From: an uncultured Verrucomicrobia subdivision 3 bacterium
GTDB taxonomy: Bacteria > Verrucomicrobiota > Verrucomicrobiia > Limisphaerales > UBA8199
Direction of reading: 5' to 3'
NCBI GenBank assembly: GCA_903913865.1
Contig: CAIWMU010000213.1
Span: forward strand, 26,854-90,853
Length of the DNA: 64,000 nt
Shown: positions 2,751-42,277 of the stretch, piece by piece
Position numbering within the stretch: the stretch's first letter is position 1
How the letters are laid out: each line of letters opens with the position of its first letter
The notes under the pieces: generated by a model
The model's input: only the letters and a program-made list of their open reading frames with translations
Told to the model about the DNA's origin: nothing
Database searches by the model: none
Program-made: the position numbers and the translations under genes

Positions 2751-3983
2751 CTATCGCTGTGAGGGAGGGGTGAAGGTGCCCTCCCAGCGGGCCATGACGG
2801 CGGAGGCCAGGCAGTTGCCGACGAGGTTCACAGTTGTTCGCCCCATGTCCAGGAAGGCATCCACTCCAAGGATGACTGCGATACCCTCGAGAGGGAGGCC
2901 AAAGCTTGTGAGAGTGCCGGAAAGAATGACGAGGGATGCCCGGGGAACAGCTGCGACTCCCTTGCTTGTCAGCATGAGGGTGAGGACAATGGGCAGTTGC
3001 TGGGCCAGAGTGAGTTCAATCCCGGCTGCCTGGGCAACGAAAACGGATGCCAGAGCGAGATAGAGTGTTGATCCATCGAGGTTGAAGGCGTAACCGGCCG
3101 GTAGGACAAACGAGACGATCCGGCGGGGCACACCAAACTGCTCCATCAACCGGAATGCATCCGGCAGGGCGGCCTCGGAAGAGGCCGTGGAGAAAGCAAG
3201 CAGGGCAGGCTGGCGCACAGCACGGAAAAATCCGGCGACCGGGATGCGTGCCAGCAGCATCACGGGGATGAACACCAACACCACCAGGGCGAACAGGGCG
3301 CCGTAGAGAGTTAGAACGAGTTTCCCGAGGCTTAGGAGGATTCCGAGCCCGTTTTTCGCCACAGTCAGCGCCACTGCGCCGCCGACACCCACCGGGGCGA
3401 ATTTCATCACCAGGTTTGTGAATTTGAACATCACCTCCGAAAGTCCCTCGCAAAAACCCAGAATGGTCCGGCGGTTTGTCGGGCCGGTCTGGGCAAGGGC
3501 AACCCCGAACAGGATCGAGAACATGACCACCTGGAGGACGTCGTTCCGGGCGGCGGCATCGAAAAAGCTTTGGGGCATCAGGTGCTCCATCACCCCCTGG
3601 AAAGTGACCTTCGTGTCGGCCAGTTCACGGCCGGTTGCGCTGGTATTTGGCAGTTGGACACCATCACCGGGCCGCACCAGATTGACGGCACCCAACCCGA
3701 CGAACAGGGCCAGGGTGGTGACGATTTCGAAATAAATGAGAGACTTGAAGGCCAGTCTTCCCACGGACTTGATATCGTCCGCATGACTGGCGATGCCCAC
3801 CACCAGGGTGCTGAAAATGAGGGGCACCACGATGCACTTGACCAGACGGATGAACAGGTTGGAGAGCACACCACCGTGCAGGGCGATCTCCGGGAAGCGC
3901 CAGCCGCAGAAAATTCCCAGAGCCATGGAAATGAGAATCCACTGGCTCAGGCTTAAACGTCGGATGGCTGCAATCATGGGCAT
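2751..3983 (-). CDS. Dicarboxylate/amino acid:cation symporter (DAACS family, GltP/DctA-like).
   Basis: It is polytopic and has family-typical segments: PLIFSTLVVGIA, FFDAAARNDVLQVVMFSILFG, SSEAALP, GYAFNLDGSTLY and VLTLMLTSKGVAAVPRASLV. I place the start at the ATG-CCC-ATG at 3983 (MPMIAAIRRLSLSQWILISMALG), which matches GltP-like N-termini. The 116 extra upstream codons in the ORF track look non-coding. Confidence 0.85.
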   Translation of the reverse strand: MPMIAAIRRLSLSQWILISMALGIFCGWRFPEIALHGGVLSNLFIRLVKCIVVPLIFSTLVVGIASHADDIKSVGRLAFKSLIYFEIVTTLALFVGLGAVNLVRPGDGVQLPNTSATGRELADTKVTFQGVMEHLMPQSFFDAAARNDVLQVVMFSILFGVALAQTGPTNRRTILGFCEGLSEVMFKFTNLVMKFAPVGVGGAVALTVAKNGLGILLSLGKLVLTLYGALFALVVLVFIPVMLLARIPVAGFFRAVRQPALLAFSTASSEAALPDAFRLMEQFGVPRRIVSFVLPAGYAFNLDGSTLYLALASVFVAQAAGIELTLAQQLPIVLTLMLTSKGVAAVPRASLVILSGTLTSFGLPLEGIAVILGVDAFLDMGRTTVNLVGNCLASAVMARWEGTFTPPSQR

Positions 3984-4521
3984 CTGCCATGGATATTGCC
4001 CCGCAGATGTGTCCTGGGGCAAGCATACTCGCTGCAGGGGGGCATTAAAAGTTAGCATGGGCCCGGTGCGGCTCGAAGGGGAACCGCGAATGGATGTGGG
4101 TGGGTGGGAGGCACTCGTGTAGAGGCGTTGACCAATTTCCCGCGAGGGGGCACTGTTGAATCCGGCTGGGGCCGGTCTCAACAGAAGAGAACTGACCCCA
4201 TCGCCCCGGGGGAGGGGTTGTCCGCAGATGGGGTAGGCGGGCGATGGGTGGAGGGGTGGCTGGCATCCCGCTGGGATGCGTGGACAATTGGGGTCTATAC
4301 CGGTGGTGTCGTCGCGTTGCTCCTCAACCACCGGCTAACATCTGGGAACCCTTCGGGTTCAGGGGGCGGGCGGCGGCGACGTTGCGATTATTGGTGGGTG
4401 AACCAATGGCGTCCGGTTTTCTGGTTTGCTGAGGTGGCGGTATTCGCGGACCGGGGGGCGATGCCTTTGCTTGATCCGGCCTTACAAATAAAGGAAGCTG
4501 GGACCTTTGAAACCTGAACAA

Positions 4522-5655
4522 ATGAGCAACACGTTTGAAGTTATTTCCCTGTCCCGCAGCAGCCGGGATATTGACCGGTTCATGAAGGTTAGCTACGGCA
4601 TTTATGCCGGGGACCCCTACTGGGTGGCCCCCCTGCTGATGGATTTGAAAAAGGTTTTTCTGGATTCAAACCCGCTGTTCGAGCATGCGCGGATGCAACT
4701 GTGGGTGCTCCGGAAGGATGGTCGGGATGTGGGGCGGATCGCCGGGCTCTTCGACGATTTCCACAATCAATCCCGGCCGGACAAGACGGTATTCTTCGGC
4801 TTTTTCGAGTGTGTGGATGACATAAATGCCGCCCGCACCCTTTTTGATGCCGTTTCTGCATGGGGTCGGCAGCTGGGTGCGGCAAAGATGCTCGGGCCGA
4901 TGAATCCCACCACGAACGACGAGTGCGGACTTCTTGTGAAGGGGTTTGATTCCATGCCGGTGTTCATGATGCCCTACAACCCGTCCTATTATGTCGGGTT
5001 GATGGAAGGTTTGGGGTTCGTGAAGGCGAAGGACCTGCTCGCGTTCCACTTGAATCTGGATGTGGTGCCCCTGGCCCGCCTTTCGCGAATTGCCCAGAAG
5101 GTTCAACAGCGGCATCCCGAGGTCCTGTTTCGGGCTGTGAAGAAGAAGGAGTTGGACCAGGTGCTGGAGCGGATCAAGCAGGTTTACAACGATGCGTGGG
5201 AGGAGAACTGGGGGTTTGTGCCCATGACGGTGAAAGAGATGGATTTCATGGCGGAGCGGTTGAAGCCGATGATGGTGGAGGGGTTGCTCTGGCTGGCGGA
5301 GGTGGGTCCAAAAACCGTTGGTTTTCTCCTGACTCTGCCGGATTACAACCCGGTGATGCAACCGCTCAAGGGCAAACTCCTGACGCCTGCCATTTTCGGA
5401 TTCCTGCCCTACATGTTGCACTGGAAGAAGTTGCCGCGTGCGAGGGTGTTGACCCTGGGCATCACGAAGGAATACCGGAACAAGGGTCTGGAGTCGGCCA
5501 TGCTGATCGAGGGCATGAAGGTTGCCGTTGCCTCCGGTCTGCGCGAGGCTGAAGCCTCATGGATTTTGGAGGACAACCACCGGATGACCCGTGTGATGGA
5601 GGCCATCGGCGGCAATCCCTACAAGGTTTACCGGCTCTACGATCGGGCGGTCTGA
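4522..5655 (+). CDS. Large (about 377 aa) GNAT-fold acyltransferase-like protein. It is a candidate bacterial ceramide synthase (bCerS-type), but that assignment is unproven.
   Basis: Segments seen include DPYWVAPLLMDLKKVF..NPLFEHA, GRIAGLFDDFHN, FFGFFECVDD, GPMNPTTNDECGLLVKGFD, MPYNPSYY, and a C-terminal GNAT core ITKEYRNKGLESAMLIEG. The ATG at 4522 is preferred over the TTG at 4507. Confidence 0.7.
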   Translation: MSNTFEVISLSRSSRDIDRFMKVSYGIYAGDPYWVAPLLMDLKKVFLDSNPLFEHARMQLWVLRKDGRDVGRIAGLFDDFHNQSRPDKTVFFGFFECVDDINAARTLFDAVSAWGRQLGAAKMLGPMNPTTNDECGLLVKGFDSMPVFMMPYNPSYYVGLMEGLGFVKAKDLLAFHLNLDVVPLARLSRIAQKVQQRHPEVLFRAVKKKELDQVLERIKQVYNDAWEENWGFVPMTVKEMDFMAERLKPMMVEGLLWLAEVGPKTVGFLLTLPDYNPVMQPLKGKLLTPAIFGFLPYMLHWKKLPRARVLTLGITKEYRNKGLESAMLIEGMKVAVASGLREAEASWILEDNHRMTRVMEAIGGNPYKVYRLYDRAV

Positions 5656-6662
5656 TCCCGGTCAGCAGCACCCGAGGGTGGTTGCACTTCATTCTCACGG
5701 GGCCCGATGGAACTGAAATAAAGTTTGTTCGCGAGCGGGATCAGGAGAGCCGCGGTGAGCAATCCTGCGACAACATCCAGAATGTAGTGGTAGCGGCAGT
5801 AAACCGTGGAAATCGTGAGAAGAACCGCCACGAACGCATGCGCGTAGCGGATGCGCGGGATGTAGCGAAAGGAGAAATAGACGGTGGTCCACGCGATTGC
5901 GACATGGCTGCTGGGAAAGGCGGCCCCCGGACCATCCACCATCCGGTAAAGCCAGGCAATGATCTGATGGAACGGCCCCTGCCTGAGCGCTTCCGGAATC
6001 AGATGCTGTCCATAGGCCTGAAACTCAGGTGGCAGAACCTGTCGCTCGAAAGGATTGAAAAAAAGCGGCGGGCCGACGATCGGGAAAAAGACATAGAGCA
6101 GGTAGCAAATGTAGAAAACGAAGGAGACGACCGAGACATAGTGAAAGAAGGAGTCCCGGCTGCGGTAGAGCAGGTAGATTCCCACTCCTCCGATCGTCAG
6201 ATAGTAGGAGAAGTAGCTCGCGTAAAGAATCTCGCTCAGGAGCAGGTTGGGAAATTTTTCCATCAAAACCACCGACGGCTGGCAGCCGAAGATCTGGTTT
6301 TCGAGCCGTATGAACGGCTCATCAATATAATTGAGGAAGAACATCCGGTTGATCCATCCCGTTTCGGCGAAGAACCAGATGAACAGGAGGACCGGATAAA
6401 AGTGGCGGAGGAATCCGAGAATCGGGTTGCTCCAGCGGGCATTCGAAAGGATCAGTGCGTGGATGCCGAGGCCCAGGGCGACGTGGATTGCGATCAGCCT
6501 TGCCCAGCCGGGAACTGTGTGGTTGTGAAAGCAGAGCAGCAGCAGGGCCACGATGAGGCTGTATCCCTGAGTCGCGTAATCGACGAAGGTGTAGTGGCGG
6601 GAGAAGCTAGATCCACCCATGCTTTTCATACCAGATGATGGTTTCACGAATGCCATCCTCAA
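5637..6662 (-). CDS. PAP2-superfamily integral membrane protein, PAP2_3 / AUR1-like (inositol-phosphorylceramide or sphingomyelin synthase-like).
   Basis: It has multiple TM helices. The phosphatase-family motifs are AFPSSHVAIAW (the PSxH motif) and CRYHYILDVVAGLL (the HxxxD motif). The start is ambiguous (Met at 6662, 6656, 6629 or 6620), and every option overlaps the end of the upstream gene. Confidence 0.75.
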   Translation of the reverse strand: MRMAFVKPSSGMKSMGGSSFSRHYTFVDYATQGYSLIVALLLLCFHNHTVPGWARLIAIHVALGLGIHALILSNARWSNPILGFLRHFYPVLLFIWFFAETGWINRMFFLNYIDEPFIRLENQIFGCQPSVVLMEKFPNLLLSEILYASYFSYYLTIGGVGIYLLYRSRDSFFHYVSVVSFVFYICYLLYVFFPIVGPPLFFNPFERQVLPPEFQAYGQHLIPEALRQGPFHQIIAWLYRMVDGPGAAFPSSHVAIAWTTVYFSFRYIPRIRYAHAFVAVLLTISTVYCRYHYILDVVAGLLTAALLIPLANKLYFSSIGPRENEVQPPSGAADRDQTARS

Positions 6663-7584
6663 GCCGGGTCCGGCAGCCGATTCCCAGGTCGGCAGTCAGC
6701 TGTGCCGGGTCACAGACCCAGCCGGGTGCCTGCAATTCCGGGAATTTGGCCAGGCTCAGGATGTCCGGGGTGCCGGTGATGGCTGTTTGGATTGATTTCA
6801 GCAGGCAGATGGGCCAGAAAGCGAGGGTTGGGAGGGGCAGGGGAATGGTCCAGACCTTCATCTCTGCGGCGATCATACCCGCCAGTTTGCGGCTGGAGAC
6901 AATCTCACTGCCTGCTGCAAAGTAGGTTTTTCCAACTGCAGCGGGGTGGTTCAATGAATGAACTGCCGCCTCGGCGAGATCCTTGACGTGAACCAGTGAC
7001 AGTTGCTGTGAATCGCTTGGGCAGGGACGCAAGTGCTTCCGGACCGATGCGAACAGGGGGAGGAATCCCCGGTCCCGGGGCCCGTAAACAGCGGGAGGCC
7101 GGATGATGGTGAATGGGGAACGGCAAAGGGTGCGAACTTCCTCCTCCGCAGCGAGCTTGCTGCGGCCGTAGTGGGAGACCGGGGACGGGGGATCTGATTC
7201 CCGGGCGGGCTTCTGCGGCGTGCCGGGCCCTGCCGCCGCAAGGCTGGAAATCAGCAGAAACCGGGCAATGTTCCCCTGCGCATTGGCAGCCTGGACGAGA
7301 TGGCGCGTGACCATCTGGTTGATGGTGTAAAAGTCCTTAACCTTTCGCGCCTTGGTGGCTCCCGCGCAATGGATGACATGCGTCACCCCTTTCAGGAGTG
7401 AGGGGAGGGTATCCGGGTCGGAAATGCTGCCTTCCCGCACCTCCATCAGAGGGTTGGTCGCATCCAGAAAGCTACGGTCACTATTGCGTCGTAACGGGGC
7501 GACTACCTGGATGCCCCTGCTGCAGAGACTGTCCAGAATATGGCTCCCAACGAATCCGCTGGCTCCTGTCAGCAGGACTTTCAA
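6607..7584 (-). CDS. NAD(P)-dependent epimerase/dehydratase-family SDR (CerR-like reductase candidate).
   Basis: The N-terminal Rossmann motif is KVLLTGASGFVGSHI. An extended-SDR YxxxK-type segment is HYGRSKLAAE. The TTG start at 7584 directly abuts the TGA of the upstream gene at 7585-7587. Confidence 0.8.
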   Translation of the reverse strand: MKVLLTGASGFVGSHILDSLCSRGIQVVAPLRRNSDRSFLDATNPLMEVREGSISDPDTLPSLLKGVTHVIHCAGATKARKVKDFYTINQMVTRHLVQAANAQGNIARFLLISSLAAAGPGTPQKPARESDPPSPVSHYGRSKLAAEEEVRTLCRSPFTIIRPPAVYGPRDRGFLPLFASVRKHLRPCPSDSQQLSLVHVKDLAEAAVHSLNHPAAVGKTYFAAGSEIVSSRKLAGMIAAEMKVWTIPLPLPTLAFWPICLLKSIQTAITGTPDILSLAKFPELQAPGWVCDPAQLTADLGIGCRTRLEDGIRETIIWYEKHGWI

Positions 7585-8889
7585 TCAGATCAACCCCAGC
7601 TCTTTTCCAACTGCACCGAGCTTTTCGAGTGCAAAGTCGATCTGCTTGTCCGTGTGCGTGGCCATGAGGCTGATGCGGATCAATTCCTCGCCCGGAAGAA
7701 CTCCCGGGGAGACGACTGGATTGACGAACACGCCCTCCTCCTGGAGTCTCTTGCAGTAGTTGAACGCCTTCATGACGTCCCGGCAGAAGAGGGGCAGGAT
7801 GGGGGTCTCGGAATGTCCCAGATCAAACCCAAGGCTCAGGAGGCCCTGCTTCATGCGCTCGGTGTTTGCCCAGAGGCGGGCAATCCGCTCCGGTTGGTCA
7901 ACCATGATCTCGATCGCCGCCAGCACGGCTGCGGCATTCGAGGGACTCATGCTGGCGCTGAAAATCAGGCTCCGGGAATGGTGCTTCAGGTAGTCAATCG
8001 TCTCCGCATCGGAGGCGATGAACCCGCCCAGACTGGCGAGGGATTTGCTGAAAGTCCCCATGATCAGGTGGACTTCGTCATCCAGACCAAAATGGCTGGC
8101 CGTTCCGGCCCCGTTCCTGCCCAGCACACCAATCGAGTGGGCATCATCCACCATGACGGCGGCCCCGTGCTTTTTCGCGATGGCGCACAATTCAGGGAGT
8201 TGGATGATGTCCCCCTCCATGCTGAACACTCCATCGACCACAATCAGTTTGCCCGCATCGGGCCGGATCTGGCGCAACCGATCCTCCAGAGCCCCCATGT
8301 CCTTGTGGGAAAATCGGTGGAATCTCGCGGGACTTGCCTGGCAGCCCTCCACGATGCTGGCGTGGTTGCTCTTGTCCCCAAGAATGAAATCCCCTCTTCC
8401 GGCCAGGGCGCTGATAACGCCCAGATTCACCTGGAAACCGGTGCTGTAAAGGAGGACTGCTTCCTTTTTCACAAGGCGGGCAAGGGCCTGCTCCAATTCA
8501 ATGTGAATGTCGAGCGTCCCATTCAGAAAGCGGGAACCGGCACAGCCTGTGCCATACTTGTCCACAGCCGCCTTTGCGGCTTCTTTGATTTTGGGATGGT
8601 TCGTCAGGCCCAGATAGCTGTTCGAGCCGAGCATGAGCACCGGCTTTCCGTCAATCATCACCTCCGTATCCTGCGCGGATGTGATCACCCGGAAATAGGG
8701 ATACACTCCCAGACCGCGAAGCTGGTTCGCGGTGGTGAAATCCTGCATCTTGTCAAAAATGAAGGGCCTGGTCCTGATCCGCCCCGACCCGTTGGCGGAT
8801 GGCGCGACGGTGCTCTTCTGCGGAGAACGGGTAGGGCAAGCCTCTTCCCGCTTCGTTTCAAGAGCTGACGTCGATTCGTTATAAATCAT
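7585..8889 (-). CDS. PLP-dependent alpha-oxoamine synthase, serine palmitoyltransferase-like (alternatively BioF/KBL-like).
   Basis: Segments seen: [55 protein letters not shown], and the PLP-lysine motif [13 protein letters not shown]. By eye it aligns along its length with the Sphingomonas SPT sequence I recall. Confidence 0.8.
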
Positions 8890-9130
8890 AGTTTTGAAAG
8901 CCGTAGAGCGACCTTATCCGCTCCCTTTTACGCCGAATCACGCGCCATGCAAGGCAGAAATTCCCCTCACAAGGTTGTCAAAAGTGTGTTTTACCGTGTA
9001 AAAAGGCTCTTCCGAAGTGTTTTTGAAAATCCGCTGTGCGGTGATGTGCAAGAGGTTGCAACGGATGAAGGCCGGGGTCTGCAAACAGATCACCCCCATC
9101 TCCGCTCCGCCAACAAAGCCCTCCGGTTTG

Positions 9131-9754
9131 CTACAGGGGCTTGCCCATGTAAACGCATCCGTCGCGGCCTTCGCCAACGCGGATCAGTTCCTTAAAGCCG
9201 AGCTTAAGATAAAATCCCATCGCCGGGGTGTTCATCATGCTGACGCCGAGGTGTGCTCCCGGGGCACCCTGCTTCTTGAGTTCTGCCATCACCTGATCCA
9301 GCATCTGGCGCCCGAAGCCATGGCCCTGTGCCCGTGGAAGCAGATCGATGTGCAGGTGGGAGGGGTAGGCGCTGTAGGGTTCGGGGCAAAAATAGTCGGG
9401 ATGGTGGTAAACAAAGTAAATCTGCTCGGCGCGGGTCCACTTTTCCGGGTCGCCTTTTGGTTCGGGATACTTGCTGCAGAGGGTGGGTCGCCATTCCTTC
9501 TCATACCGGTCGTAGAACTGGTGGGAGTCCAGAGCGCCAAGGGCGTAGCCGCAGATCCCCTGATCATCCTCGAGGATGAGTCCAAACTCAGGGGCATAGG
9601 AGAGATAGGGCCCGACGAAGACCCGTCCGAGCGCATCGGGATCCTCCCGGTAGAACGGTTCACCATCGCGGCCGAAATCGCCGGTTTTCAGGCAGACGTG
9701 GTAGGCACCTGCTTCATCGCCGGGGCGGACACCCCGGATCTTAAAATTGCTCAT
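9131..9754 (-). CDS. Stand-alone GNAT acetyltransferase homologous to the C-terminal HAT-like domain of eukaryotic O-GlcNAcase.
   Basis: LILEDDQGICGYALGALD matches human OGA FVLEDEDGICGYALGTVD. FKIRGVRPGDEAGAYHVC matches YSIRPYFPKDEASVYKIC. GFYLKLGFKEL matches EFYSKLGCFEI. It retains the acetyl-CoA motif RAQGHGFG. The start is 5 nt after the GH84 stop. Confidence 0.8.
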   Translation of the reverse strand: MSNFKIRGVRPGDEAGAYHVCLKTGDFGRDGEPFYREDPDALGRVFVGPYLSYAPEFGLILEDDQGICGYALGALDSHQFYDRYEKEWRPTLCSKYPEPKGDPEKWTRAEQIYFVYHHPDYFCPEPYSAYPSHLHIDLLPRAQGHGFGRQMLDQVMAELKKQGAPGAHLGVSMMNTPAMGFYLKLGFKELIRVGEGRDGCVYMGKPL

Positions 9755-9759
9755 GTTAT

Positions 9760-11163
9760 TTATGCCGGGTTGGTTTCCGGCGTTGATCTTTTCGTCTCGA
9801 GTGACTGTGCGACAGTAAAGGCACCATCCGCTTCCTGCACCAGAAATTTTTGCAGATCTGCCACAAAGCTTCCGCGGTAGGTATGGGGGAGGTGAAAGTC
9901 TGCCCTAAACGGTGTGTGCCGGATTGCCGGGTTGGCCCGGTGCTCGATGCAGCGCTGCAACAGGTCGATCTCCTCGCGCAGTTCCCACACCCGTCGGTGG
10001 ATGGCGTTGAAGAGGGGGCGGTTTATCAGTTCCGCCATCCGCGCACAGCAGGATCGGAGGCGCTCGGAGCGTTCGCGGAATTGTGCGAGGATGTCCGGCA
10101 TGGCCAGGGGATCGCCCTGCAAAAGTTTGCGGGTCAGGTCGAACAGGATTTCCGCCTCCGGCCCGCTTTCGTAGGGCAGGTAATGGCAATCCCCGAACAG
10201 GACGAGATCCTCATAGGAGATCGGGGCACCGGCCGTTAGAAACTGGGAGTGCCATTCCCGCATGGCTTCCAAATAGGCCTGGCGCGGATTCCAGTCAGGA
10301 GACCCGTGCAGGAACTTCCCCAGGGTGAGCCATGGGACAAAATTCACCGGGAACTCGCAATTGGGGTTGCAGAGCAACCCGGCGAGTTCCTGCCGCAGTT
10401 CGGGCGGGCGTCCGGAGTAAGGGCCGCAGTAGAAACGGCGGCCATCGTAATCGTTGGCATGCAGGTTCTCCCAGACCACCGGCTTCCGCCGCAGGAGGCT
10501 TGCCAGATCGCGGGTTTCCTGGACGGTGATTTCCTCTGGAATGATTTCGGACCCGGTCCAGAAGACGTCGATTTCCGGCAGCAATTCCTGACCCAGAATG
10601 GCGAGGTAGTTCTTCCCCCCATGCTCGCGCATGGCCATCCGCCCGCAGTAGGGGGTGGGGCAGAAAAGAAATCGCGAGGAGGGTTCCTGCTGGCGTATCC
10701 AGCGGAATATGGCGTTGGTGGTGGATGCCTGCGCGGCTGCCAGGGATGTCCATCGTTTTGAGTCCTCCGGGTGCATCTGGTCCGGGATGTCGTCGAAAAG
10801 CAGACAGAAATGTTTGGCTCCCAGCGAAAGAACCTGGGCGAGCTTGCCCTGTAGCGCTTCATGGTCGGATGTCGAGGAGTAGGTGATGTCCAGCCCGGGG
10901 CTGAGTGCATAGAGAAACTCGAGCCCATGCTCCGATGCCGCGCGAATGAGGGTCTGGAGGTCGGCCGCCTCCGTTTGTGTGTATTGTTGCCGCCACTGTG
11001 CCCGGTGCTTCAGATCGTCCTTGGGCGCATACATGTAGGTGTTGAACCCGCATCGGCGCATCCAGTCAAAGAGGGTCATCCGTTCAACGGAACTCCAAGG
11101 CGGGCCGTAAAATCCCTCAATCACACCGGTCAGGAATGTTGCTTCGTTGCTCACGTTTTGCAT
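9760..11163 (-). CDS. GH84 beta-N-acetylglucosaminidase of the O-GlcNAcase (OGA) type, with catalytic and helical stalk regions and no signal peptide.
   Basis: Motifs seen: [29 protein letters not shown], the catalytic Asp-Asp pair in [53 protein letters not shown] and LLCNPNCEF. All are co-linear with the human OGA motifs I recall. Confidence 0.9.
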   Translation of the reverse strand: [467 protein letters not shown]

Positions 11164-39167: not shown

Positions 39168-40337
39168 CTATTTTCCGTAGAACTGTTCAACCACCTCGCG
39201 GAAGGTGTTTTCGCCGACGTTCACAATTCCCATTTCCCGAGCCGCATTTTCGGGAGAATCGCTGGCGTGTGCTGCGTTGATCATCACCGTCTGGCCAAAC
39301 TCGCGGCGGATGGAACCCGGGGGTGCCTTTGAAGGATCTGTCGGTCCGAGGACGTCCCGGATCTTCCGGACAGCCTCCACACCCTCGTAAACGAGAGCAA
39401 TGCACTTCTCCGAGCCCGGCTGGTTGATCTCGCCAAGGGGCGTCTCCGACGGGGCACGTCCGGACATGAATTTCACGATGTTCTCAAACTGGTTGTCCGC
39501 GAACACGGGGCCGAGACTTTCCCCCAACTGCGACTCAATCTGTGGGGAAACCTTGATCCCCAGTTCCTTTTCCAAGGCCAGTTTGGCCTTCCCGGCGACC
39601 ATGTCCTTCAGCTTGATGCGCAGCACTTCCCGCACGGGGCCATAAAATTCAAGGGCCTGTGCCACGCTCATGCGGTGCAATTTGACTGCGACGATATACA
39701 GGCCGGTCCGGGAAAAGAAATCGATCATGTTGCCCGGGCGTCCTGTCGGGAACCGGAAGTTCTCCGGCTTGATCAACACAAGGGTTCTCTGGGGAGGTGC
39801 CTCGGGGGCATAGGTCAGAACGTTTTCCAGAACACCACCATCGGCGTCGGAATAACTGGCCCACAAGCGGAGTTTGGAGGCGGCCTCTTCCGCAGTGGGA
39901 GCGGCCAGAACGGCTGGTTCGAAGTATTTCACCTCATCGCTCTCGTCGGTGATGAGATCCCCGTAGGTGTCCCGGATGGTCTCACCTCCACGGCGGTCAG
40001 TGGTGATATTCCCGATTACGGAACGGGTCTTCCTCACAGCGTCCTCTCCCTGGAAGAGCATCATCATCACCCGGCGCCGACGTCCTGTTTTGGGATCGGG
40101 GCTGAGGTTTTTGATGATGTAATTGTAAATAAGCTCCTGAATACGACGATCCTGGGGGTCGTTGGCTGAAATGGTCTCTTCCGCATATTTTTGAATCAGC
40201 TCGGCGCTGGGGGAGAACATGCGGGCACCAACCAATTCAAGACCGGTGCGGGTAATCAGACGGCTCAGAATGCCTCCCGTGCGGGACTTATGCAGGGAGT
40301 AGGGGGTGATGATGACGTAAGCGAGTTGTTGGGACAT
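39168..40337 (-). CDS. Tandem nucleoside-diphosphate-kinase-fold protein. The N-terminal copy is degenerate. The C-terminal copy keeps the catalytic His.
   Basis: Domain 2 has RTLVLIKPE.., GPTDPSKAPPGSIRREFG and NAAHASDSPENAAREM (the NxxHxSDS active-site motif). Domain 1 has AYVIITPYS.. and GETIRDTYG, but has EPAVLAAPT where the His motif should be. Confidence 0.75.
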   Translation of the reverse strand: MSQQLAYVIITPYSLHKSRTGGILSRLITRTGLELVGARMFSPSAELIQKYAEETISANDPQDRRIQELIYNYIIKNLSPDPKTGRRRRVMMMLFQGEDAVRKTRSVIGNITTDRRGGETIRDTYGDLITDESDEVKYFEPAVLAAPTAEEAASKLRLWASYSDADGGVLENVLTYAPEAPPQRTLVLIKPENFRFPTGRPGNMIDFFSRTGLYIVAVKLHRMSVAQALEFYGPVREVLRIKLKDMVAGKAKLALEKELGIKVSPQIESQLGESLGPVFADNQFENIVKFMSGRAPSETPLGEINQPGSEKCIALVYEGVEAVRKIRDVLGPTDPSKAPPGSIRREFGQTVMINAAHASDSPENAAREMGIVNVGENTFREVVEQFYGK

Positions 40338-40762: not shown

Positions 40763-42277
40763 TTAGTGCTTTTCTGCAAGAAGATCAGCCATCTGTTCCC
40801 GCAGGGTGGTCTTCAGAATTTTTCCGGTGGCATTTCTGGGGAGGGCGTTCATGAGCACGATGTGCTTGGGGACTTTGTAATCGGCAAGTTCCTTCTTTAG
40901 AAAGGCTTGCATGGCTTTCACATCGAGGATGACGCCATCCAGCGGAGCAACAAAAGCCACCGGTTGTTCTCCTCGTCGATCGTCCGGTTTCCCAACCACT
41001 GCGGCTTCCTTCACACCCGGGAAGTGATAAAGAACCTCCTCGATCTGTCTGGGGTAAACATTAATGCCGTTGACGAGCAGCATGTCTTTCTTGCGATCAG
41101 TGACATAAAAATAGCCATCCTCGTCCACATGCCCGATGTCTCCAGTGAGGAGCCATTTGTCACGCATCACCCTCGCGGTCTCTTCAGGCTGGTTCCAATA
41201 ACCCATCATCACGTTGCCCCCGCGGACGCAAATTTCCCCCGTCTGGTGTGGCGGGAGGATATTGCCCTGATCATCCTGAATCGATACCTCGACTCCGGAA
41301 ACGGGCAAGCCGATGGATCCCGGTTTGCGGATTCCGTTGATCGGGTTTTTGGTGGCCACCGGGCTGGTCTCGCTGAGGCCGTAGCCTTCAAGAAGGGGGA
41401 TTTTGAACTTTTCCTCGAACTCCTTGAGCACTTGCACTGGTAGCGGGGCCGCGCCGCTGACGCAGACGCGGAACGGAAAGGGCATCGTATGACCGTGGGA
41501 AGCCAGGCTGCGGTAGAACTGTGGGATCGCGGGGAGGATGGTGGCTTTTGCCTGGATCATCTCCTGAAGCGCATGGCGGACTGGATGGAGAGACTTGACC
41601 AGAACGATGGATCCGCCCACAAGAAGGGGGAGCAGCATTCCCACCGTGAGCATGTAACTGTGGAAAAGCGGAAGCAGAACGGCCATCCGGTCATCGGTGA
41701 TGGTTTGGAGAACGATCCGGCAGCTCTCAACGTTATGCAGGAGGTTCCCGTGGGAAAGCATCGCGCCCTTGGGCTGGCCCGTGGTGCCGGATGTGTAGAT
41801 GAGCACCGCCAGGTCGGATTCGGTGGCCTGAGTCGGGGCTGTCCAACCGGAGTCCACGGACAGGTGCTCCTGCTCCCAGACTGACAGGTCCACCACACAC
41901 AATTCCGGGTGGTTCTCGCGGAGTGCCTCCCTGTTTTGGATCAGTTCCGCATCCGTCAAGAGCAGGTCGATGCCGGCATCCGTTAAAATGTGCCGGAGTT
42001 CAGGAGCCTTGAGAAAGTTGTTAATGGGGACGACAACGCCCCCCGCCTGAAGGATCCCGAACAGGCCCCAGATGAAGTCGGGGCAGTTCTTCATCCACAG
42101 ACCCACACGGTCCCCGGGCTTGACGCCGAGTTCCCGTGAAAGCCGATATCCAACCCGGTCAGCCCTCGAGCGGATGTCCAGATATGAGAATTGTCGTTCT
42201 CCCCAGCACAGAGCGGTCTTCTCAGGGCGGGCAGCGGCGGAGTTTGCAAATGCAGTCCACAGGTTCATCGTTATCAA
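40763..42277 (-). CDS. AMP-dependent acyl-CoA synthetase/ligase (FadD-like).
   Basis: The AMP-binding signature is LIYTSGTTGQPKGAMLSH. GYGLSETS, TGDIGHVDEDGYFYVTDRKKD and the C-terminal NATGKILK are also present. Confidence 0.9.
   Translation of the reverse strand: MITMNLWTAFANSAAARPEKTALCWGERQFSYLDIRSRADRVGYRLSRELGVKPGDRVGLWMKNCPDFIWGLFGILQAGGVVVPINNFLKAPELRHILTDAGIDLLLTDAELIQNREALRENHPELCVVDLSVWEQEHLSVDSGWTAPTQATESDLAVLIYTSGTTGQPKGAMLSHGNLLHNVESCRIVLQTITDDRMAVLLPLFHSYMLTVGMLLPLLVGGSIVLVKSLHPVRHALQEMIQAKATILPAIPQFYRSLASHGHTMPFPFRVCVSGAAPLPVQVLKEFEEKFKIPLLEGYGLSETSPVATKNPINGIRKPGSIGLPVSGVEVSIQDDQGNILPPHQTGEICVRGGNVMMGYWNQPEETARVMRDKWLLTGDIGHVDEDGYFYVTDRKKDMLLVNGINVYPRQIEEVLYHFPGVKEAAVVGKPDDRRGEQPVAFVAPLDGVILDVKAMQAFLKKELADYKVPKHIVLMNALPRNATGKILKTTLREQMADLLAEKH

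Follow-up and report, generated by a model that had tools for sequence, protein, structure and literature searches.

The question raised by positions 4522-8889 of the DNA described here, a 64-kb stretch from an uncultured subdivision-3 Verrucomicrobium (the whole stretch is referred to throughout as the window), is whether four closely packed genes could take such a bacterium from serine to a finished phosphosphingolipid. Sphingolipid production has been demonstrated mainly in the Bacteroidota and in some Proteobacteria. The Verrucomicrobiota were flagged as potential producers in a Black Sea study, which reported 22 metagenome-assembled genomes (MAGs) with Spt-like genes (PMC11334938). An earlier, sequence-only reading of the window proposed a complete pathway from serine to ceramide together with a phospho-head-group transferase, and the family assignments of the four gene products, which were made by homology, support this proposal. 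In our view the locus probably codes for a pathway, complete in itself, that leads from serine to a phosphosphingolipid, a reading to which we give a probability of about 0.72. The four open reading frames (ORFs) form a three-gene operon on the minus strand and a convergent GNAT gene, with the following features.

7585-8889, minus strand: serine palmitoyltransferase (Spt) of the Bacteroidota (CFB) type, 434 residues, assigned from hidden Markov model (HMM) and PDB matches

6607-7584, minus strand: CerR-like extended short-chain dehydrogenase/reductase (SDR), a putative NAD(P)H-dependent 3-keto reductase, 325 residues, assigned from Pfam and BLASTP

5637-6629, minus strand: integral membrane protein of the PAP2_3 type that resembles AUR1, candidate transferase of a phospho-head group to ceramide, 330 residues, assigned from Pfam, profile and fold

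4522-5655, plus strand: bCerS-like tandem-GNAT N-acyltransferase of the YghO/CC_1154 family, 377 residues, assigned from BLASTP and fold

8890-9130, minus strand: 241-nt intergenic region upstream of the serine palmitoyltransferase (SPT) gene, the presumed site of the operon promoter, from reading of the sequence

Inspection of the sequence placed the four ORFs where the sequence-only reading had put them, and the junctions which it described are also found. The stop codon of the SPT gene (TGA, 7587-7585) directly abuts the start codon of the SDR gene (TTG, 7584), which opens TTG AAA GTC CTG and encodes MKVLLTGASGFVGS, a normal Rossmann N-terminus. The end of the SDR gene (TAG, 6609-6607) overlaps the start of the PAP2 gene. 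The PAP2 ORF begins at a TTG at 6662, but the likely start is the ATG at 6629 because the homologues begin at the equivalent position (MKSMGGSSF...); with this start the two genes overlap by 23 nt. The GNAT gene starts at an ATG at 4522, which gives a protein of a length that agrees with those of its homologues. Its stop codon (5653-5655, plus strand) and that of the PAP2 gene (5639-5637, minus strand) confirm the reported overlap of 19 nt between the two 3' ends. The motifs quoted earlier are likewise present: GTFSKS at residues 278-283 of SPT, and FPSSHVA and RYHYILDVVAG at residues 238-244 and 279-289 of PAP2. Most likely, translational coupling joins spt, cerR and the PAP2 gene into a single operon, and bcerS is a separate, convergent transcription unit. 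A simple scan upstream of SPT gave no sigma-70-like site, and no promoter was defined for this reason; terminator-like sites occurred only at background level.

The first enzyme is the only alpha-oxoamine synthase (AOS) in the window. As judged from curated HMM scores and PDB matches, which were used in place of a phylogeny with outgroups, it is an SPT of the Bacteroidota type that groups with the curated SPTs and not with KBL, BioF or ALAS. It scores 606 bits against the NCBIfam model NF047600 (SerpalmtaseCFB), compared with 404 bits for a BioF/Kbl-related subfamily, 389 for KBL, 387 for BioF and 253 for ALAS, so that the SPT model stands some 200 bits clear of every non-SPT model. The earlier choice of SPT over BioF or KBL is in keeping with this difference (606 bits against 404 or less). 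The Pfam family Aminotran_1_2 is matched with 199 bits, and the active-site motifs GTFSKS, NHASI and DDAHS are all present, the first of them containing the PLP lysine (Lys282, window positions 8044-8046). The sequence is 70-82% identical to the operon SPTs of its relatives, and its N-terminal extension of about 45 residues is kept only in close relatives.

The best PDB matches are those to the SPT from Sphingobacterium multivorum (8guh/3a2b), with 487 bits, followed by Sphingomonas SPT (280 bits), KBL (277 bits) and cysteate-C-fatty acyltransferase (231 bits). The enzyme had been likened along its length to that of Sphingomonas, which these scores do not support; the closer relatives are the Sphingobacterium and Bacteroidota enzymes. 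The presence of the cysteate enzyme among the matches, together with a score which falls just under the equivalog cut-off of the SPT model, could be taken to indicate that the AOS is of the KBL/BioF or cysteate type and that the cluster makes some other N-acyl amino-lipid, for example a sulfonolipid. Given the distance of about 200 bits to any non-SPT model and the clear preference for Sphingobacterium SPT over both the cysteate enzyme and KBL, we consider this extremely improbable. Furthermore, the linked head-group transferase would need a free C1 hydroxyl, which would be available only in serine-derived bases.

The type of SPT also bears on the supply of the acyl substrate. The Bacteroidota-type enzyme takes acyl-CoA directly, whereas the Rhodobacteria type requires AcpR and AasR (PMC11324152). 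The absence of an adjacent acyl carrier protein (ACP) or acyl-ACP synthetase gene, which was noted from the sequence and which we also find, is explained by the use of acyl-CoA by the Bacteroidota type (PMC11324152). The AMP-binding, FadD-like ligase at 40763-42277 was considered as a candidate AasR and rejected: it is indeed distant, as had been stated, lying 32 kb away among housekeeping genes, and would not be needed by a CFB-type SPT.

The GNAT is, as far as can be judged from sequence comparison, a member of the bCerS/YghO family. Pfam gave a weak match to Acetyltransf_1 in the C-terminal half, NCBIfam gave no match, and single-sequence PDB searches with this protein or with PAP2 returned nothing useful. 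In tblastn searches of plasmid records, matches covering about 95% of its length were obtained with E. coli YghO, with a Roseomonas 'dATP pyrophosphohydrolase' and with N-acetyltransferases from Sphingomonas, Streptomyces, Rubrobacter, Nonomuraea, Pseudomonas veronii and Aureispira. BLASTP gave 32% identity to YghO over 370 residues, which is the full length (E = 3e-69), in line with the relationship to bCerS proposed earlier; the identity is 32% with the Sphingomonas homologue (E = 2e-62) and 38-39% with those of Rubrobacter, Nonomuraea and Streptomyces. YghO and the epimerase of the E. coli cluster can be taken as the published orthologues of Caulobacter bCerS and CerR because the legend to Figure 9 of PMC9386255 lists CC_1164 and ECD_02852 for epi, and for aca it gives CC_1154 as well as yghO (ECD_02850). 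We located the two E. coli proteins through the tblastn searches of plasmid records.

The genomic surroundings of these homologues are of the same kind. In seven organisms (E. coli, Sphingomonas, Nonomuraea, Rubrobacter, Streptomyces, P. veronii and Aureispira) the GNAT gene adjoins genes for an AOS and an SDR, with the order AOS-GNAT-SDR in Rubrobacter. In E. coli strain 550 yghO lies beside genes for a fatty-acyl-AMP ligase, an epimerase, an ACP and Spt, which are followed by lptG and lptF. The Roseomonas homologue is located instead in a sphingolipid head-group and transport cluster of the Caulobacter type: it comes after two LptF/G genes and a sterol-desaturase-family gene and before a nucleotidyltransferase gene. 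Apart from the inserted desaturase, this is the order of Caulobacter CC_1156, CC_1155, CC_1154 and CC_1153. A metagenome scan returned 14 distant GNAT homologues (28-46% identity), and in 11 of these loci the gene immediately upstream is an SPT homologue, while in seven the SDR gene comes immediately downstream. The AlphaFold2 model (pLDDT 78.8) is a tandem GNAT that resembles MshD, the clavulanate-pathway tandem GNAT, glucosamine N-acetyltransferase, NMT and FemX, and Foldseek matched it to tandem GNATs (2wpw, 5kf1, MshD, NMT and FemX) with E values down to 1e-13.

Two observations on related genes are recorded here. In E. coli strain 550 (L011), yghO flanks a full aasR-epi-acpR-spt cluster with extra copies of lptF and lptG, and of 5426 complete E. 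coli genomes 4549 carry this gene. The window contains a second GNAT gene, at 9131-9754 on the minus strand, directly upstream of SPT on the same strand and 5 nt downstream of a gene for a GH84 beta-N-acetylglucosaminidase (9760-11163). Its 207-residue product was considered as the ceramide synthase and rejected; it is RimI-like, is absent from the loci of relatives and is not matched by any of eight bCerS orthologues.

The SDR carries the motifs TGASGFVG (residues 6-13) and YGRSK (residues 139-143) and the serine in ISSLAA, and it matches the Pfam family Epimerase with 125 bits. It aligns end to end with the epimerase of the E. coli cluster (the equivalent of ECD_02852 and the orthologue of CC_1164), with 31% identity over 324 residues (E = 2e-35), which substantiates its description as a CerR relative. 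BLAST scores of 90-165 bits were obtained against seven other cluster-linked SDRs, and the cluster-linked SDRs of Sphingomonas, Rubrobacter, Streptomyces, P. veronii and Aureispira align with it; its specificity relative to other extended SDRs was judged from such scores and not from a tree. The best solved relatives, which include NDUFA9, score 79 bits or less. The 3-ketosphinganine reductase of Bacteroides (the BT_0972-type KDSR) was considered as a counterpart and rejected, being a classical SDR and thus of a different family from the extended SDR of the window. The Rossmann motif begins as early as residue 6, which leaves too little sequence ahead of it for a classical signal peptide. Caulobacter CerR is reported to be periplasmic, with an export route that is undefined there (PMC11087976).

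The first three steps of the proposed route would then run as follows. Spt, as its family assignment suggests, would condense L-serine with acyl-CoA to give 3-ketosphinganine. The GNAT, by its homology to the bCerS/YghO family, would N-acylate the long-chain base from acyl-CoA, and the SDR, by its homology to CerR, would reduce the 3-keto group with NAD(P)H. From the sequence, acylation and reduction could occur in either order, and this order is disputed even for Caulobacter (PMC11087976, PMC11324152).

PAP2 matches the Pfam family PAP2_3 with 69.9 bits, compared with a cut-off of 27. In a search with a profile of 45 family members, yeast AUR1 was the best PDB match (E = 7e-4), with PSSH aligned to PSLH and HYVVD aligned to HYFVD. 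The AlphaFold2 model (pLDDT 83.8, pTM 0.83) superposes best in Foldseek with the inositol-phosphorylceramide (IPC) synthase-ceramide complex 9vj4_A (TMq 0.57 and TMt 0.65 over 307 columns), and Aur1 of the Aur1-Kei1 complex 9ivc_A (TM-score 0.54) is likewise among the best matches. With B. subtilis PgpB, LpxE and SMSr the TM-scores are only 0.30-0.36. The resemblance to AUR1 claimed for this protein is thus found again by Pfam, profile and fold. For the sphingomyelin synthase family, the PAP2_C score of 24.6 bits lies under the cut-off of 27 and the TM-score to SMSr (8ijq) is 0.30.

The predicted catalytic triad consists of His242 (window positions 5904-5906), His281 (5787-5789) and Asp285 (5775-5777). 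These three residues and Ser240 are invariant in the 45 sequences, which include those of Bacteroides and Nonomuraea, while Arg279, two residues before His281, is not kept in the Bacteroides and Nonomuraea proteins. Eight transmembrane helices with both termini in the cytoplasm are suggested by the helices of the model together with the positive-inside rule; in such an arrangement the residues of C2 and C3 would lie on the periplasmic side, as they do in other PAP2 enzymes.

To survey the occurrence of the locus we scanned one genome per species with the PAP2 alignment, which identified a relative in 563 genomes; the locus counts given below are drawn from the best 80 of these. All 80 are Verrucomicrobiota MAGs labelled as subdivision 3, Limisphaerales or Pedosphaerales, and the closest named genome, UBA693, shows 66-82% identity across the four proteins. 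In 65 of the 74 loci that could be evaluated, the PAP2 gene is directly preceded by the SPT and SDR genes. A convergent GNAT gene follows downstream in 31 of 71 loci, with a gap of -12 to +215 nt in all but one of them (L077, 899 nt). When the flanking ORFs were clustered, no other family recurred in more than six of the 80 loci. The locus counts and the variable flanks indicate that the conserved unit is spt-cerR-PAP2, which bcerS often but not always adjoins, and since the order SPT-SDR-PAP2 recurs in most of the evaluable loci of the 80 species-representative genomes the arrangement is no chance adjacency.

Departures from the common arrangement were also seen. Some genomes carry a second PAP2 paralogue (52-55% identity) without SPT or SDR genes upstream (L015 and L071, both from UBA693; also L034, L044, L045 and L069). 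Seven of the 65 loci which could be evaluated on both sides have no operon, and two of these seven keep the convergent GNAT gene. Locus L090 (44-1375), from one Verrucomicrobial genome, has a PAP2-GNAT pair without SPT and SDR genes, and the gene before this pair weakly resembles neutral/alkaline ceramidase in its N-terminal domain, with a score below threshold (29 bits).

The linkage of the PAP2 gene to ceramide genes recurs in four settings: the Verrucomicrobiota, two metagenomic loci, Nonomuraea and Bacteroides. The metagenomic loci (L102, 4717-9034, and L103; contigs Ga0315553_10001275 and Ga0307444_1000255) belong to another lineage and contain a co-directional spt-bcerS-cerR-PAP2 operon, and in Nonomuraea gerenzanensis all four genes lie within 5 kb. 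In Bacteroides finegoldii and another Bacteroidaceae genome there is an overlapping SDR-PAP2 gene pair (L013, 5952-7915; L099, 9003-10966). The Bacteroides PAP2 family is also found in B. stercoris, B. clarus, B. nordii, B. hominis and B. togonis. On plasmid 1 of Rubrobacter radiotolerans (L095, 10185-12254) the AOS-GNAT-SDR operon is succeeded not by a PAP2 gene but by a gene of the LTA-synthase family; this may encode a different head-group (glycerol-phosphate) transferase.

The pair in B. finegoldii (WP_022274854.1 and WP_237923849.1) resembles the window in that a gene for a CerR-like SDR overlaps a PAP2_3 gene. The two SDRs are 30% identical (E = 6e-53) and the two PAP2 proteins are 29% identical (E = 4e-25), with PSSH and HY..D invariant in both. 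It differs from the window in that spt and bcerS are located elsewhere in the genome, and the pair also lies away from the inositol-lipid cluster that contains BT_1522. No function has been reported for this pair in the literature that we searched.

Most characterised bacterial PAP2 proteins are phosphatases. It is therefore necessary to ask whether the ceramide part of the pathway is right but PAP2 is a lipid phosphatase that acts on ceramide-1-phosphate, sphinganine-1-phosphate, lipid A or polyprenyl diphosphate. The protein does belong to the PAP2 superfamily (PF01569, 37 bits), and there are weak matches to PgpB, LpxE and acid phosphatases. However, the phosphatase C1 motif KxxxxxxRP was not found in PAP2 and the C3 arginine is replaced, the canonical SR position reading ST as in AUR1, so that the protein departs from the motif set of the lipid phosphate phosphatases (C1, C2 PSGH, C3 SRxxxxxHxxxD). 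The best profile and fold matches are to AUR1, with TM-scores of 0.36 or less for the phosphatases, and no ceramide or sphingosine kinase gene is linked in any of the 80 loci. On balance, we regard a phosphatase as rather unlikely.

The transferase assignment leads to a proposal for the last step, in which PAP2 would take a phospho-alcohol from one of the bulk glycerophospholipids and attach it to dihydroceramide at its C1 hydroxyl, with release of diacylglycerol. The transfer would proceed via a phospho-histidine intermediate on the His242/His281/Asp285 triad, and the positive-inside rule would place it at the periplasmic face. We hypothesize that the donor is more likely to be phosphatidylethanolamine (PE) or phosphatidylglycerol (PG) than phosphatidylinositol (PI), since the operon is not accompanied by genes for head-group precursors. 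The inositol-supply genes, namely those for MIPS, a CDP-alcohol phosphatidyltransferase and a phosphatidylinositol phosphate (PIP) phosphatase, were found neither in the 64-kb window nor as recurring neighbours of the operon in the 80 related loci.

The last result bears directly on the suggestion that PAP2 is an IPC synthase with PI as the donor, like yeast AUR1 and BT_1522 of B. thetaiotaomicron. AUR1 provides both the closest solved structures and the best profile match, and BT_1522 shows that such enzymes exist in bacteria (PMC9246714). Apart from the missing inositol genes, however, the related Bacteroides PAP2 lies outside any inositol cluster, and its family is spread over many species of Bacteroides, whereas in that genus PI-dihydroceramide is species-specific and PE-dihydroceramide is universal (PMC10191378). 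We therefore think it improbable that PAP2 of the window is an IPC synthase.

According to a 2023 review, PE-dihydroceramide is made by all of the Bacteroides tested, while PI- and galactosyl-dihydroceramide are species-specific; the review names enzymes for the latter two lipids and none for PE-dihydroceramide (PMC10191378). No identified bacterial ceramide phosphoethanolamine synthase was found in the literature that we searched, and this, taken with the Bacteroides pattern, would favour PE or PG over PI as the donor. One possibility, which we advance tentatively, is that the operon-linked PAP2_3 subfamily is a bacterial ceramide phosphoethanolamine (or phosphoglycerol) synthase, similar to AUR1 and SMS, that uses bulk PE or PG. 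The subfamily is conserved between Verrucomicrobiota of soil and fresh water and the Bacteroides of the gut, in which its gene is a partner of cerR. If the proposal were true, it would name the gene behind the PE-dihydroceramide of Bacteroides.

Several points weigh against the reading of the locus as a complete route to a phosphosphingolipid. The SPT score is 34 bits short of the NF047600 equivalog cut-off of 640. The homology tests for bCerS and CerR were run on the published E. coli orthologues and not on the Caulobacter proteins themselves. The Foldseek E values of PAP2 with AUR1 are weak (6e-3 and 1.5e-2) at a sequence identity of about 15%. The GNAT gene is adjacent in only about 44% of the related genomes, and at least one GNAT with 64% identity sits in an unrelated neighbourhood. 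Finally, the identity of the head group is a guess.

Besides the Bacteroides gene pair, three known systems can be compared with the locus. The three ceramide enzymes belong to the same families as Spt, bCerS and CerR of Caulobacter crescentus (CC_1162, CC_1154 and CC_1164) and those of E. coli BL21 (spt, yghO and ECD_02852), although the identities are only about 30-39%. As in the Rhodobacteria (PMC11324152), cerS of the window is in a transcription unit apart from spt. Unlike the situation in Caulobacter, the SPT is of the Bacteroidota acyl-CoA type without AcpR or AasR, there are no linked LptF/G paralogues, ceramide kinase or CPG genes, and the head-group enzyme is a PAP2_3 protein encoded inside the spt operon.

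PAP2 shares with BT_1522, the PI-dihydroceramide synthase of B. thetaiotaomicron (Heaver et al., 2022, PMC9246714), the character of a PAP2_3/AUR1-like membrane protein, a comparison which was made by description and not by sequence alignment. BT_1522 lies in an inositol-lipid cluster with MIPS and PIP synthase, whereas PAP2 of the window is encoded beside spt and cerR in surroundings that contain no inositol genes. With yeast Aur1 (PDB entries 9vj3/9vj4 and 9ivc) PAP2 has in common the fold of the whole protein (TM-scores of 0.54-0.65), a His-His-Asp triad in PSxH and HYxxD and the lack of the C3 arginine. It differs from the yeast enzyme in the low sequence identity already mentioned, in having no Kei1 partner and in a donor lipid that is probably not PI.

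None of the four families is new; clusters of Spt, bCerS and CerR have been described from bacteria before, as has an enzyme of the AUR1 kind. What merits attention here is a compact, widespread Verrucomicrobial operon and, within it, an uncharacterised PAP2_3 subfamily whose genes adjoin cerR in Bacteroides as well. PAP2 is thus a gene candidate for a phospho-ceramide synthase in bacteria, and one that can be tested in genetically tractable Bacteroides with the homologous cerR-PAP2 pair. The PAP2 gene is present in at least 563 species-level genomes, and most of the best 80 keep a compact, probably complete ceramide pathway beside it. Because the operon is widespread among Verrucomicrobiota genomes, these abundant bacteria of soil, peat and fresh water may be a source of sphingolipids in the lipid pools of the environment.

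Elsewhere the window has the look of ordinary chromosome, with genes for a secretion/pilus-type ATPase, a secretin, BamA, DnaB, RF3, Amt, GlnE, glycosidases and a sulfatase. Two ORFs on the minus strand have long N-terminal sequences without matches: that of a DctA/GltP-type symporter at 2751-4331 (about 125 residues) and that of NDK at 39168-40337 (about 250 residues). The starts of both have probably been set too far upstream, the alternative being that the extensions are real. At 55-2550 on the plus strand there is a gene for an 831-residue protein that consists of three near-identical tandem modules of about 270 residues and a C-terminal tail, in which each module carries the pattern ...QWDFxxGxL...NQYTLIMD...DGDLFWQQGNFGQGGGGYNG...

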